Assembly: GCF_054482525.1 (NCBI RefSeq)
Contig: NZ_CM137006.1
DNA: 64,000 nucleotides
Strand: one strand, 5' to 3'
Under the pieces are notes generated by a model. It was not told the DNA's origin. It worked only from the letters and a program-made list of their open reading frames with translations, and made no database searches. Every line of letters begins with the position of its first letter. The first letter of the stretch is position 1. The translations under genes were made by a program, and so were the position numbers. This document shows positions 11,131 through 27,159 of this stretch, piece by piece.

Positions 11131-11467
11131 CATGACTCCTTGCTCATCGCATGAAGACTCCGAGAGTGAACCCCGTTAGAAAGGGTCACACGCATGCCCC
11201 AATACAAAATTATTTGCTCGCCTCTATCGTTGCCATTTCATCAAAAGAGGAAAAGACAATGATAAAAAAGTTACAAATATGTTAATGAATAAACCAAATT
11301 GATCCCGTAATTATATTACGCCGCAAAATCCTTACAATAAACAGGTTTTTATTGAGCAAATTTGCATTTTTCGACAGTGATCAATTTATAGCGAAATTGT
11401 CACGATCTCACCAATTTGATCTACGACAATTTATCGTGTTTTGCAGATTTTTTTCAAGAATTAAAAA

Positions 11468-11481
11468 TTGATTTATATCAA
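11468..11481. promoter_or_regulatory. FNR consensus box TTGAT-TTAT-ATCAA in the cydA upstream region
   Basis: Perfect match to TTGAT-N4-ATCAA about 340 bp upstream of cydA; cydAB is known to be FNR/ArcA regulated. Confidence 0.5.
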
Positions 11482-11935
11482 AATCAACCAAATATGTTAA
11501 TTATGTATAAACCATAGATTATTGGTAATTTTATTGTTAATTTATTGTGAAATATTTATACAACACAATTATTACAATGAAAAGGTATAGATAAAAAACC
11601 AGTGTTTTATTTAACAGAACCGCCCTATCCACTTTTTATAATACCAATTGATTAGAGTAGCCAATTTGTTGCTATTTTACATAACATATTTTTATCAAAG
11701 TTAATTGATTGTTGCCTTTATGAGCACCGACCGTAAGCCCGTTATGTTATTGTTTCATTAGTAATAATCACTTAAATGTATCGATGAAACAGGTATGACT
11801 TAGCGGGAGTGATTGTTTCTGAGTGAACAGAGACCACTTTCGCCTGATAAATGAAAAATGAGCGATTTTTGCAAGTTAGTTTTTCTATAGCCGAGTACGC
11901 TCAGCGCCTCGCTTGATTACAATGAGGTTGCTGCT

Positions 11936-12880
11936 ATGAGTCCTGATAATATCAGTTCTGCTGTCAATCGCTTCTCAGGTTGGCCATCTAATAATCCTCT
12001 AAAAACAGATAACGAATCAATGACATCACCCATGACTGTGCAGGTAATAAAGATGATTGCCGCCATCCTTGACCCACATCGAATAGTCGTTGGAATCGAT
12101 ACACTTTATACAACGCAGCGCGAAACATTTACCTCAGAGAGTCAACAGCTCATTGAATCAGCATTGCAAACACTTCATGTGATGAATTTAAATAACCTGG
12201 AAACAAATCTCGATGAGGAAGGTCACTATCTGGCTTTTGGATATAACGTTGACACTCCTGACAGAATAACCGTTTCTGCTTATAATGAAAAAAAGCCTGG
12301 CTGCTATGGCCAATGTCTTTTAATACAGGATGACGAAACAGACTTATTTAACCTGATAAAAGTTAAAATTTATGAAGCCAGGCATAATTATGTCGCTCAA
12401 TTGATGAGCGATCCGGAATTTATGTTCAAATTTAGTTATAGCGCTCAACAAAATAGATTAGAACCTCATCTTCTGGTTCCCACTTATTTCCCTCTAAAAA
12501 CAAACGAACCGGTTACGCCAGAGGATGTACTGTTACTTTATCGTTTCTTTAAAATGGATGGTGATTTTAATATATTAACATCAGATGAATACATGAGTAT
12601 CATGACACCTCTGATGAAGTGTGAGCGCAGCATCCACGACCACAACAGGTATGTGACGGGCAAAGATACCCTTCTTCTGGACTATCCTCCTTCTGGTAAC
12701 CAGATATATTTCCATATTTTTCCTGACGAATCAGCAACACTAGTCCTTTATTTTTCAAACAATGACATTGAATGTTTCGTCTTTGAAAGAGATATTCCGA
12801 GCCAGTATCGCTTTTTCAAAATGTTTACCAATCTGGCACTGGTTATTGATCAGTTAACCGATGCCAATCAAATACTTTAA
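11936..12880 (+). CDS. Hypothetical protein, 314 aa, AT-rich, no recognisable domain
   Basis: Intact ORF with GAGG RBS about 8 nt upstream; Ser/Pro/Asn-rich N-terminus; no TM or signal peptide visible; AT-rich codon usage unlike neighbouring core genes. Confidence 0.6.
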   Translation: MSPDNISSAVNRFSGWPSNNPLKTDNESMTSPMTVQVIKMIAAILDPHRIVVGIDTLYTTQRETFTSESQQLIESALQTLHVMNLNNLETNLDEEGHYLAFGYNVDTPDRITVSAYNEKKPGCYGQCLLIQDDETDLFNLIKVKIYEARHNYVAQLMSDPEFMFKFSYSAQQNRLEPHLLVPTYFPLKTNEPVTPEDVLLLYRFFKMDGDFNILTSDEYMSIMTPLMKCERSIHDHNRYVTGKDTLLLDYPPSGNQIYFHIFPDESATLVLYFSNNDIECFVFERDIPSQYRFFKMFTNLALVIDQLTDANQIL

Positions 12881-12960
12881 TTTTTATATATCCCCTGTGG
12901 CAAATATTGCTAAACAATGCCCGGGGATTAATTTTTATTACTCACGGAAAGATTTAAATA

Positions 12961-13383
12961 ATGATCCCATCTCAAATCTCTTTCAACACCCTTCCTGTCA
13001 ATGCAACATACGCTTCAGAGACAACAGTTGACACACAAAAATTCTCTGACATCCTCTACTCAGCGGGGTGTTCCCTAAAGGATCTGGCTTATCTGAGCAG
13101 ATGTCTGGCATCAATACATCCGACTATCGCCAAAAACATTTATGAAACAGAAAATCTCAGCGATCAAAAATTACTGCATATTGATTTCCGTAGTACAAAT
13201 GAAATCAAGATAAATATCTTTTTTGGTCAACAACGAGAAGGATTAATTGAAATTAATTCTGACACTGTCATTTTTCCGATATTGTCTTCATTAATTGACT
13301 CCGCCATTTCTAAATTTCAACACCAAATCCCCGTTAACGGTTCAGTAAATCCTGACCTATTGTATGAGGATTATACTGATTAA
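12961..13383 (+). CDS. Hypothetical small acidic protein, 140 aa
   Basis: ORF 80 bp downstream of the 314-aa ORF on the same strand; excess of Asp/Glu; AT-rich. Confidence 0.5.
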   Translation: MIPSQISFNTLPVNATYASETTVDTQKFSDILYSAGCSLKDLAYLSRCLASIHPTIAKNIYETENLSDQKLLHIDFRSTNEIKINIFFGQQREGLIEINSDTVIFPILSSLIDSAISKFQHQIPVNGSVNPDLLYEDYTD

Positions 13384-24712: not shown

Positions 24713-24718
24713 CAGGTT

Positions 24719-25624
24719 TTACATCTCCTGCGGTACAACCGATTTCGCCAGCAACCATTCACGAAATTGCTGCAAGTGCGGTGAGTCAGACTTCTCTTCC
24801 TGCCACGTCATAATAAAACGATTACCGGTACGAATAGGCACATCACAGGGAATCACCATATCGCCACTATCCAAATCATGTTGAATAGCGAACCGTGGTA
24901 ACAGCGCCACGCCGAGATTAGAGCGCACGGCGGCAATCAGCATTGAAAGCAAATCGAAACGTGGTCCGTTGTTGACCAGCGGACTGCTAACGCCAGATAA
25001 GGCAAACCACTCTTCCCAGCCAGTAATACGGGTACTTTGATGCAGAAGTGGTAACTCTGTAAGCAGTTCTGCCACTGACAGTTTTTGATCGGACATTGCA
25101 AGCAAACTGCCGCTGCATACCGGCAAAATCTCCTCTTCAAAGAGATATTCTACTTCCGCCCAGGGCGCGCAAAAATTTTCGCGCATAATGACAGCATCGT
25201 ACTCCCGATTAAGAAAATCGCCGTTATTAGCTAAAGAGTGAATATTAACAATAATATCGGGATGTAACTTTGTGAATTCATGTAAATTTGGGATTAACCA
25301 GTGGGTACTAAACGTAGGATTCACGGCAAGTTCAATAACCTTAACTGTAGGTTGCCAGGTCATAATGGTATTGGTATCGCGTTCCAGCTTATTTAATGTT
25401 TCTTTTACTATCCCCAGGTAATACTTCCCTGCATCATTAAGAAAAATACGTTTTTTAGAGTGTGAAAATAACGGAGTATGTAAAAATTCCTCCAGCGCAC
25501 TCACTTGTCTGAATACTGCACTTTGGGTTAACGCTAACTCCTCTGCCGCTCTGGTATAACTTTCATGACGTGCGACGACCTCAAAAGTCACCAGCAGTTC
25601 CGTTTTAGGTATTTTTCCTCGCAT
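24719..25624 (-). CDS. LysR-family transcriptional regulator
   Basis: 301 aa; N-terminal HTH (TFEVVARHESYTRAAEELALTQSAVFRQVSALEE) and LysR substrate-binding domain. Confidence 0.85.
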   Translation of the reverse strand: MRGKIPKTELLVTFEVVARHESYTRAAEELALTQSAVFRQVSALEEFLHTPLFSHSKKRIFLNDAGKYYLGIVKETLNKLERDTNTIMTWQPTVKVIELAVNPTFSTHWLIPNLHEFTKLHPDIIVNIHSLANNGDFLNREYDAVIMRENFCAPWAEVEYLFEEEILPVCSGSLLAMSDQKLSVAELLTELPLLHQSTRITGWEEWFALSGVSSPLVNNGPRFDLLSMLIAAVRSNLGVALLPRFAIQHDLDSGDMVIPCDVPIRTGNRFIMTWQEEKSDSPHLQQFREWLLAKSVVPQEM

Positions 25625-26190
25625 AATGCCGTCCCTTAAAAATAGTTTAAACCATCAAAAATACATTACTTATTACGAAGTAATGGTAACCAAAGCAGCA
25701 ATAAATAATTTATAAGAATCATGATTGACATTTATAACCCAGTAAGCCTGGCGTGACAAATATCTTAATCAGATAATAATAATCCGAAAAGCACAGCGCC
25801 TTTCGAATTATCCGGAATCACATTAAGTGAAAATTATTAAATTGATATCATTTATCATATCTGTGGATATTATGATAAACAATCAACAAAGATTTTATTT
25901 TTGATTTATAGCATATCCCTCTAAGAATTTTTGCGATGCTGCAATATCCGGGGTAAAGACCCGATCCTGGCTGACAAATGGCACGACTTGACGATAAGCG
26001 GTGAACATCGCTTTTGTTGATTTACTTAACGCTACGGTCAAACGCTGGGAAGCCAGTGCATCAGGTAACGATTCGAAATTCGCCGTCGTTCTTATTCGTG
26101 GCTTGCGGTCGGTTGCGGCAATCCACAGTGGCTGTGGTCATGCAGTCAAGCCAGCGGTCAGATTTCGACCGTGGTTAACATTTAAGGCAT

Positions 26191-26289
26191 AAAAAAGGCC
26201 ATCATACGATGGCCAACCATGTCGAAACCGACAGCCCTTCGCCATTCCTGTAGAGGGAAGCGGCGAGGGCTATTTCTTATTACAGATAT
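26191..26289 (-). ncRNA. sdhX: sucD 3'UTR-derived sRNA SdhX (RybD) with intrinsic terminator
   Basis: About 100 nt between sucD stop and hairpin GGCCATCGTATGATGGCC + U6 on the minus strand; position matches the known SdhX locus. Sequence identity not checked. Confidence 0.5.
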
Positions 26290-27159
26290 TTATTTCAGAA
26301 CAGTTTTCAGTGCTTCACCGATATCCGCCAGGCTGCGAACGGTTTTCACGCCTGCGGCTTCCAGAGCAGCGAATTTCTCATCCGCAGTCCCTTTCCCACC
26401 GGCAATGATGGCACCCGCGTGGCCCATACGTTTGCCTTTCGGCGCAGTCACACCAGCGATGTAACCCACAACAGGCTTGGTAACGTGCTCTTTGATGTAC
26501 GCAGCCGCTTCTTCTTCAGCGCTACCGCCGATCTCACCGATCATCACGATCGCTTCGGTCTGCGGATCTTTTTCGAACATTTCGAGGATGTCGATAAAGT
26601 TAGAGCCAGGGATCGGGTCGCCGCCGATACCAACACAGGTCGACTGACCGAAACCGTAATCCGTGGTCTGTTTAACCGCTTCATAGGTCAGTGTACCGGA
26701 ACGGGAAACGATACCCACTTTACCCGGTTTGTGAATGTGACCAGGCTGGATACCGATTTTGCATTCACCCGGAGTGATAACGCCTGGGCAGTTCGGGCCG
26801 ATCATGCGAACGCCCGCTTCATCCAGTTTCACCTTCACGGTCAGCATATCCAGCGTCGGGATGCCTTCAGTGATGGTGATAATCAGTTTGATGCCTGCAT
26901 CAATAGCTTCCAGAATGGAGTCTTTGCAGAACGGTGCTGGTACGTAGATAACAGAAGCGGTAGCGCCAGTAGCAGCAACAGCTTCACGCACGGTGTTGAA
27001 CACCGGCAGGCCGAGGTGGGTGGTGCCGCCTTTACCTGGGGTTACGCCGCCAACCATTTTAGTGCCGTATGCAATGGCCTGTTCTGAGTGGAAAGTCCCC
27101 TGGCTACCGGTAAAGCCCTGGCAGATAACCTTGGTGTTTTTATCAATTAAAATGGACAT
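26290..27159 (-). CDS. sucD: Succinyl-CoA synthetase alpha subunit
   Basis: 289 aa [45 protein letters not shown]... Confidence 0.95.

Follow-up and report, generated by a model that had tools for sequence, protein, structure and literature searches.

What fills the space between cydA and sucD in an Escherichia coli chromosome that does not carry the mngR-mngA-mngB genes of K-12 at that position, and is this content a newcomer? The question was raised by a stretch of 64,000 nucleotides (NCBI RefSeq assembly GCF_054482525.1, contig NZ_CM137006.1; hereafter, the window), whose positions 9000-28500 are 100% identical to E. coli SCU-102, a human commensal strain. The interval, bordered by cydA (9562-11133, minus strand) and sucD (26290-27159, minus strand), is very probably the cluster of the methylaspartate (mesaconate) pathway, through which enterobacteria would catabolize glutamate with the help of adenosylcobalamin. 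It has very probably long resided in a slot of modular, variable content, with the cydAB promoter on one side and the sucABCD terminator on the other. A cluster of this kind was described in E. coli O157:H7 by Kronen & Berg in 2015 (PMC4682846), and its observation here is an ordinary one; the additions made by the present analysis are modest, and consist of the family-wide synteny, a hutH/rtcB scar at the right flank, a conserved operator candidate and the orphan status of two open reading frames (ORF1 and ORF2).

Gene content and the predicted pathway

The gene content of the interval was taken from the annotation of the identical genome (SCU-102) and checked with NCBIfam. It comprised two hypothetical ORFs, nine pathway genes on the plus strand, an IS200C element and a LysR gene. 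The initial annotation of this DNA had listed a 10-gene glutamate catabolism module, an IS200-like element and a LysR regulator; the last two were both found, and the module was revised to nine pathway genes, with the LysR regulator in addition. As had also been noted, the pathway genes run opposite to cydAB and sucCD, which lie on the minus strand. The first of them, glmS (13931-14380), encodes the B12-binding subunit S of methylaspartate (glutamate) mutase, scored 251 bits with the NF002612 model (cut-off of 110) and presents the cobalamin-binding motif DxHxxG as DCHAVG. It is followed by glmL (14380-15768) for the accessory (reactivating) protein of the mutase (NF040745, 510.7 bits vs. a cut-off of 475; TIGR01319, 893 bits), by glmE (15787-17232) for the catalytic subunit E (TIGR01503, 864.6 vs. 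390 bits) and by mal (17232-18473) for 3-methylaspartate ammonia-lyase, whose start coincides with the glmE stop (TIGR01502, 543 vs. 286 bits). Further downstream, after cmlA, cmlB and the gene of a dicarboxylate/amino acid:cation symporter (DAACS), fumD (21710-23362) encodes a class I fumarase/mesaconase (NF011921, 1282.5 vs. 1060 bits), and the last gene, cobO (23372-23974), a cobO/cobA-type ATP:cob(I)alamin adenosyltransferase that makes the adenosylcobalamin cofactor (NF004637, 294 vs. 185 bits; TIGR00708, 247 vs. 168 bits). The presence of GlmS, GlmE and GlmL with an adjoining mal gene and a co-located extra class I fumarase, FumD, is what places the locus among the enterobacterial methylaspartate-pathway clusters. 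Moreover, mesaconase activity was measured for FumD of O157:H7, the product of the orthologue ECs0757, which has the same position in its cluster (PMC4682846). The symporter (20322-21602, from the annotated start), a presumed glutamate importer, scored 314 bits with DctA and 304 bits with GltP.

The two genes between mal and the symporter gene had been regarded in the initial annotation as unassigned members that were worth scrutiny; they can now be assigned. They are cmlA (18477-19847; ECs0760 in O157:H7 Sakai), of the AtuA family (DUF1446), and cmlB (19844-20161; ECs0759), of the DUF4387 family, predicted to encode the large and the small subunit of a citramalate lyase independent of coenzyme A (CoA). 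CmlA matched the PDB entries 9ERQ_A/9EVF, named ‘Citramalate lyase, subunit A (cmlA)’, over its full length (residues 1-456; E = 4.6e−292; ~93% identity), and CmlB matched 9ERQ_B, named ‘Citramalate lyase, subunit B (cmlB)’, over residues 1-104 (E = 5e−57; ~83% identity). The two-subunit arrangement was also recovered, that is, an AtuA-family protein of ~456 amino acids (aa) and a DUF4387 protein of ~105 aa whose genes overlap by 4 nt. The Sakai annotation mislabels both genes, calling cmlB an acyl-CoA synthetase and cmlA another methylaspartase, and the name ‘acyclic terpene utilization’ given to CmlA in the RefSeq annotation is misleading. CmlA does belong to the same Pfam family (AtuA, PF07287; E = 5e−19) as AtuA of the Pseudomonas acyclic terpene utilisation cluster, but it differs from the latter in its context, in its DUF4387 partner and in its nearest solved structure, which is named citramalate lyase. 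Kronen & Berg had left open both the function of DUF1446 and the fate of (S)-citramalate (PMC4682846). In a 2026 preprint, cmlAB of Raoultella planticola (a gift of I. Berg) was used, with isotope labelling, for the cleavage of citramalate to pyruvate and acetate in vivo. With the match of CmlAB to the citramalate lyase structures, the route from glutamate through methylaspartate, mesaconate and (S)-citramalate to pyruvate and acetate would now be complete on paper.

According to these assignments, the DAACS symporter would bring in glutamate, which GlmS and GlmE, kept active by GlmL and supplied with the cofactor by CobO, would convert to (2S,3S)-3-methylaspartate. Mal would then take off ammonia to give mesaconate, FumD would hydrate mesaconate to (S)-citramalate, and CmlAB would split this compound into pyruvate and acetate. 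Finally, the LysR-type regulator probably acts on the glmS operon through a T-N11-A box located at 13797-13817.

All nine pathway genes were of full length both in the window and in O157:H7, and their ratios of non-synonymous to synonymous substitution rates (dN/dS) within E. coli were 0-0.14. Most of them had a G+C content (GC) of 0.49-0.56 and a third-position G+C content (GC3) of 0.49-0.62, within the range of the core genes of the window, the AT-rich exceptions in the interval being only ORF1, ORF2, cmlB and lysR. In the case of cmlB, the AT-rich gene (GC 0.387, GC3 0.33) lies inside a module with a GC of 0.49-0.56, and the CmlB proteins of the window and of O157:H7 show 100% conservation.

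The same genes in the same order and at the same site, with ~98% nucleotide identity, are those of ECs0755-ECs0767 in E. coli O157:H7 Sakai (PMC4682846), which also has the ORF1/ORF2 pair and the hutH/rtcB remnants; the window differs in carrying an extra IS200C between cobO and lysR. Like Sakai, O157:H7 strain F8952 has an interval of identical content but without the IS. The statement that a glutamate mutase/methylaspartase/FumD cluster was known from O157:H7, and that the module itself was probably not new, was borne out. The Sakai locus tags ECs0755-ECs0767 were not mentioned in any text found in the literature search. The clostridial cluster (Clostridium tetanomorphum/C. tetani) shares GlmS, GlmE, GlmL/MutL, Mal and their chemistry. 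In the clostridia considered in PMC4682846, however, the mesaconase consists of two subunits (MesAB) and the citramalate lyase is of the citrate lyase type (CitDEF with CitCXG), whereas the window has FumD, a class I fumarase of one chain, and CmlAB, which is unrelated to the clostridial lyase. The cmlAB genes stand beside glmSLE-mal in some loci of Bacillota and Dictyoglomus. In the haloarchaeal methylaspartate cycle, mesaconate is activated to mesaconyl-CoA and the cycle serves acetate assimilation; in contrast, the interval of the window encodes no CoA-transferase or mesaconyl-CoA hydratase and corresponds to a catabolic route without CoA esters.

Limits and origin of the interval

At the same cydA-sucD position, from the cydA upstream region to the sucD terminator, K-12 holds mngB-mngA-mngR, whose content (a phosphotransferase system transporter, a mannosylglycerate hydrolase and a GntR repressor) is unrelated to that of the window. 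In blastn alignments, the homology to K-12 breaks off at 11506 and returns at 26187, leaving a variable segment at 11507-26186 of 14.68 kb here and 5.9 kb in K-12. The initial annotation, which had set the differing block at 11134-26290, was right about the difference from K-12 in this segment, but not about its first 373 bp (11134-11506), which are the conserved cydA upstream (regulatory) region, belong to the core genome and align to K-12 at 96% up to 11506. The adjacent AT-rich segment (11507-11771) is not present in K-12 and is common to the variant of strain NU14, which carries a gene for a tetratricopeptide-repeat (TPR) protein. The left edge of homology varies, being located at 11506 for K-12, at 11771 for NU14 and at 12986 for an Escherichia-like metagenomic contig (Logan SRR11658232; L007). 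At the right, the homology to K-12, NU14, E2348/69 and L007 returns at a common edge (26187-26189), next to a hairpin with a T-run that resembles a terminator, as read by inspection, 3′ of sucD (26190-26214, minus strand), which forms the right edge of the slot in all variants. Both junctions were AT-rich, as described earlier, with a GC of 0.27-0.40 over 11250-13999 and of 0.36-0.42 over 25000-26249. Furthermore, and also in keeping with that first description, neither an intact homologue nor a fragment of mngR, mngA or mngB was found in the window by blastn (E ≤ 1e−5) or by blastx (E ≤ 10), the latter giving only noise.

The distribution of the cluster was obtained from a scan with CmlA of one genome per species, which yielded 61 loci on which the proteins of the window were mapped by tblastn. 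The complete order glmS-glmL-glmE-mal-cmlA-cmlB-symporter-fumD-cobO-lysR between cydA and sucD was found in Klebsiella grimontii, K. michiganensis, many Citrobacter and Salmonella enterica subsp. arizonae. Pseudescherichia vulneris had the cluster at cydA-sucD with no match for cobO, and Escherichia whittamii and Escherichia sp. E1V33 had a reduced cluster at this site, with no match for the symporter or cobO. In K. oxytoca, K. spallanzanii and S. enterica subsp. diarizonae, the cluster adjoined one flanking gene, the only one reached by the stretch that was fetched. The protein identity to the window was 80-94% in Klebsiella, Citrobacter and Salmonella (vs. 88-99% for CydA, CydB, SucC and SucD), 62-85% in Yersinia, Hafnia and Morganella, 45-70% in Aromatoleum and Azoarcus, and 34-59% in Bacillota and Dictyoglomus, and the divergence therefore tracks taxonomy. 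In other genera with the cluster, glutaminase A is encoded between the symporter gene and fumD, and lysR is separated from sucD by an AraC/PocR-like gene; both genes are missing from E. coli. Moreover, Citrobacter amalonaticus S646 had mngB-mngA-mngR directly to the left of glmS, and another C. amalonaticus and Citrobacter sp. NCU1 had mngB/mngR fragments between cydA and glmS; thus, mng and glm are neighbours, not alternatives, in that genus.

Within E. coli, a total of 5,426 complete genomes were surveyed. The interval (at least 80% of window positions 9000-28500) was present in 1,116 of them (20.6%), the ORF1-ORF2 module in 1,134 (20.9%) and mngB-mngA-mngR in 3,864 (71%). A longer form with the hut operon and rtcB appeared in 144 genomes (2.7%) and the IS200C insertion of the window in five (0.09%), while the Citrobacter-type tandem of mngR followed by glmS was found in none of the 5,426.

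These results bear on the proposal, made in the initial annotation, that an accessory island acquired horizontally by this lineage entered between cydA and sucD and displaced mngR-mngAB. An IS is indeed present, but in only five genomes and inside the interval rather than at its border. The AT-rich borders and the foreign-like composition of ORF1 and ORF2 would also fit an arrival from outside; however, the GC and GC3 of most pathway genes are native, so that the composition is not atypical across the interval, and the hallmarks of a mobile island were not found: neither the annotation nor the ORF scans showed an integrase or recombinase, and there was no tRNA or flanking direct repeat, the repeats near the borders being AT-rich and at chance level. 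As for the patchy occurrence in E. coli (~21% of genomes with the cluster, 71% with mng and none with both in tandem), it has to be set against the taxonomy-like divergence of this cluster among Klebsiella, Citrobacter, Salmonella, Pseudescherichia and other Escherichia, all of which carry it at the same site, and against the mng genes or their remnants beside glmS in Citrobacter. A replacement of mng by an incoming island is thus unlikely, and it has the direction of events wrong because the cluster occupies the same site in five or more further genera and stands in tandem with mng in Citrobacter.

Judged by the sequence comparisons, the glm module is instead very probably an old resident of the cydA-sucD site in Enterobacteriaceae, not one newly inserted. 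It has been lost or exchanged time and again, most likely through recombination between conserved sequences of the cyd and suc flanks. The state of K-12 and that of the O157 type are best regarded as different results of loss or replacement within a slot that is both old and modular. The cluster of E. whittamii and Escherichia sp. E1V33 shows ongoing erosion. The glmL gene of E. whittamii is disrupted, its frame differing from that of the window, with two stops in the fixed-length translation. Among the loci were also a contig labelled as a metagenome-assembled genome (MAG) of ‘Collinsella sp.’ (L013), 99-100% identical to the E. coli cluster, and HRGM_Genome_0066 (‘Citrobacter sp.’; L014/L020), with one E. 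coli-like and one Citrobacter-like copy, both of which are probably due to binning contamination or chimeric MAGs.

Variants of the slot and additions restricted to Escherichia

The slot presented several states. It held mng only in K-12, a TPR protein only in NU14 (gene at 3961-5076 of L004), and both a TPR protein and mng in Ecol_AZ161 (TPR gene at 3974-5167 of L074), while ORF1-ORF2 together with glm appeared in short, rtcB-only and long forms. The TPR protein gene fills the part of the slot proximal to cydA in some strains, with or without mngBAR. In the contig L007, an ORF1 homologue of 64% identity is accompanied by an unrelated ORF of 258 aa (11786-12562), for which no match was obtained in NCBIfam. 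A hybrid was found in a derivative of O127:H6 E2348/69 (3437-8713 of L005), with the order cydA-ORF1-ORF2-glmS-ISEc13-truncated mngA-mngR-sucD. Here, glm stands left of mng, opposite to the order of the Citrobacter tandem, and for this reason it looks like an IS-associated recombinant of glm-type and mng-type chromosomes. Within the species, recombination in the very conserved cyd and suc flanks probably carried the states of the slot from strain to strain, and what K-12 shows is one among several alternatives at an old, modular locus.

ORF1 (11936-12880, plus strand, 314 aa; ECs0767 in Sakai) and ORF2 (12961-13383, plus strand, 140 aa; ECs0766) had been described as two AT-rich unknown ORFs, and this was confirmed by their GC of 0.38 and 0.37, respectively (GC3 of 0.36 for ORF1 and ~0.35 for the pair), and by the lack of matches in Pfam, NCBIfam, PADLOC and PHROGs. 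ORF1 is an orphan restricted to Escherichia: in 5.8e9 proteins it was represented by only five clusters, and a phmmer search of 1.84e9 representatives gave nothing but pieces of ORF1 itself. ORF2, restricted to Escherichia/Shigella, had 42 homologous clusters, all of E. coli or Shigella where named. The ORF1 homologue with 64% identity keeps exactly 314 codons, and the dN/dS of ORF1 was 0.36-0.52 in comparisons with the three homologues that diverge most. With two almost identical alleles (L005 and L006) it was ~1.1-1.2, the substitutions there being too few to judge; for ORF2, the dN/dS was 0.20-0.57. In Escherichia sp. MOD1-EC7003, ORF1 is in fragments. AlphaFold2 models reached a pLDDT of 36 for ORF1 (single sequence) and of 43 for ORF2 (10-sequence alignment), too poor for a fold search. 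Paralogy between the two ORFs was rejected (BLASTP E = 1.0; hhalign probability of 1.1%). From their conservation, ORF1 and ORF2 are real, fast-evolving genes found only in Escherichia. Since the ORF1 homologue of L007 occurs without glm, their module is distinct from the glm genes, and ORF1-ORF2 is a separate, compositionally foreign, Escherichia-only addition.

At the right flank, the stretch between lysR and the sucD terminator was compared by blastx with the proteins of the long form in EC17GD31 (L006), which consists of glm and lysR followed by hutHGI-hutD-permease-hutU and rtcB. Remnants of hutH and rtcB covered 25895-26192. Two of them belong to a HAL/hutH-like ammonia-lyase on the minus strand with 89-90% identity, namely its C-terminus (aa 511-557) at 25895-26035 (E = 8.5e−21) and aa 378-397 at 26027-26086 (E = 1e−4), and the other two to RtcB on the plus strand, namely aa 375-398 at 26090-26161 (E = 1.4e−7) and the C-terminal aa 451-466 at 26145-26192 (E = 1e−3). 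Pieces of hutH were also recovered by blastn. The rtcB gene is intact in L006 and in MFDS1022581, an intermediate with rtcB between lysR and sucD and no hut operon (24088-26980 of L076). Therefore, the form of the window and of O157:H7 is a deletion derivative of a longer glm, hut and rtcB form. Furthermore, E. whittamii and Escherichia sp. E1V33 have different remnants of HAL, hutU and RtcB, so the genus has had the hut/rtcB module for a long time, and the module has decayed there on several occasions. The Hut enzymes convert histidine to glutamate, and the long form thus physically couples both pathways.

The IS200C copy of the window (23978-24683, minus strand, 706 bp) lies between the cobO stop and the terminator shared with lysR. 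It was annotated as such in the identical genome and confirmed by alignment with the empty site in O157:H7, and it interrupts no gene. With a length of ~0.7 kb, a single tnpA (24082-24540, minus strand, annotated as IS200C) and the structured 5′ leader RNA STnc490 (24550-24673, minus strand; Rfam, 146 bits vs. a gathering score of 56), it has the organization of the IS200/IS605 family, and its insertion is very recent and neutral. It is followed by a GC-rich hairpin (24684-24720; inverted repeat I24, 16-nt arms and a 5-nt loop) located where cobO and lysR converge, which is kept in O157:H7 and is likely a bidirectional terminator. Elsewhere in the window, between ybfA and ybgA, a gene for an RHS element core protein (~52600-56775, minus strand) was observed, followed by a small hypothetical ORF; in SCU-102, the identical genome, the RHS gene is annotated as a pseudogene interrupted by an internal stop.

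Regulation and the role of the cluster

The presumed regulator of the cluster (24719-25624, minus strand; ECs0755 in Sakai) belongs to the GcvA-like subfamily of LysR-type transcriptional regulators (LTTRs). Its product matched many LTTR models over the full length, scored 221.6 bits with NF008352 (below the cut-off of 288) and is named ‘LysR substrate-binding domain-containing protein’ in RefSeq. The gene is co-located with the cluster in Enterobacteriaceae and Yersinia, and is divergent from and close to glmS in Aromatoleum/Azoarcus. A 21-nt box, TTTTGAAAATAGATCAATTGC, with the pattern TGA-N7-TCA and T-N11-A, was found once in the window, at 13797-13817 (plus strand), 114-134 nt upstream of the glmS ATG. 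It was invariant in an alignment of the glmS upstream regions of seven genera with an otherwise mean column identity of 65%, and presented 0-1 mismatch in ~38 loci. A degenerate form, CTGA-N7-ATCAATTG, was found in Yersinia, Budvicia, Hafnia, Azoarcus and Telmatospirillum, and among the loci compared the box was absent in those of Morganella and of Clostridia and Gram-positive bacteria. Sites of LysR-type regulators have the general form T-N11-A, and the box is a candidate operator of the LysR-type regulator.

Other regulatory elements were considered as well. The box was rejected as an FNR or CRP site, since its half-sites, read by eye, lie N7 apart (TTGA-N7-TCAA) and not N6. A scan of 11134-14000 for sigma-70 promoters and terminators gave counts not above those of shuffled sequence, and the search of the interval for a cobalamin riboswitch or another Rfam RNA returned only STnc490, borne by the IS200, and a match of 26 bits, far below its gathering score of 315. 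A second conserved block with a TTGATCACAA core (13661-13671), ~260 nt upstream of glmS, was common across the genera aligned and may be a further regulatory site.

Several points weigh against reading the interval as a resident cluster for glutamate catabolism. Although the genes are assigned, pathway flux in E. coli is what we infer from them. O157:H7 showed neither methylaspartase activity nor glutamate-dependent anaerobic growth, and no conditions of expression were found (PMC4682846). The assignment of CmlAB follows from the names given by the PDB depositors and from one preprint using the enzyme, and the literature search returned no primary biochemical paper on it. The symporter scored below the cut-offs of both GltP and DctA, so that glutamate is its presumed substrate. 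As to the supposed link between the LysR protein and the box, box-like sequences occur in the Hafnia and Budvicia loci, which have no LysR homologue within 10 kb. Finally, vertical descent with loss and old transfers by flank recombination are not strictly separable without phylogenetic reconciliation.

Some of these points could suit another role, namely the uptake and catabolism of C5-dicarboxylates (mesaconate, citramalate and methylaspartate), with the symporter importing the dicarboxylate and FumD and CmlAB as the essential enzymes. The symporter is slightly nearer to DctA, a C4-dicarboxylate transporter, than to GltP, but glutaminase A in other genera and the former hut operon in Escherichia both feed glutamate. 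Likewise, FumA and Cml alone allow growth on mesaconate in the engineered strain of the 2026 preprint, and O157:H7 gave no glutamate phenotype (PMC4682846); however, GlmS, GlmE, GlmL, Mal and CobO all remain intact, evolve under strong purifying selection and are co-conserved with cmlAB from Clostridia to Enterobacteria, and we consider this role improbable. That the locus is a silent, decaying relic without present function in E. coli is less probable still, since the undetected laboratory expression (PMC4682846), the loss of glsA in E. coli compared with Klebsiella/Citrobacter, the loss of hut and rtcB in most strains and the state of E. whittamii (no symporter or cobO, glmL disrupted) stand against nine full-length pathway genes, their low dN/dS and an interval kept in 1,116 complete genomes.

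The resident glutamate cluster, as the preferred reading, can be extended in a tentative way. The interval could be the eroded rest of a larger, native unit of the Escherichia ancestor that linked hut to glm-mal-fumD-cmlAB, all switched on by LysR through the 21-nt box, with ORF1/ORF2 as a pair of an undescribed family beside the cydAB control region; this is conceivable, although the odds are somewhat against it. If true, the long-sought conditions for the operation of the pathway in E. coli would come to light once the LysR regulator is over-expressed or its ligand is found.

For genome scanning, the practical lesson is that a block unlike K-12 need not be an incoming island. As to the biology of E. 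coli, nearly all O157:H7 carry the cluster according to Kronen & Berg (PMC4682846). For about one fifth of E. coli strains, it represents a potential ATP-yielding, redox-neutral fermentation of glutamate in the gut when corrinoids are available. With the pathway complete on paper, the invariant box and the LysR gene offer a handle on its regulation.

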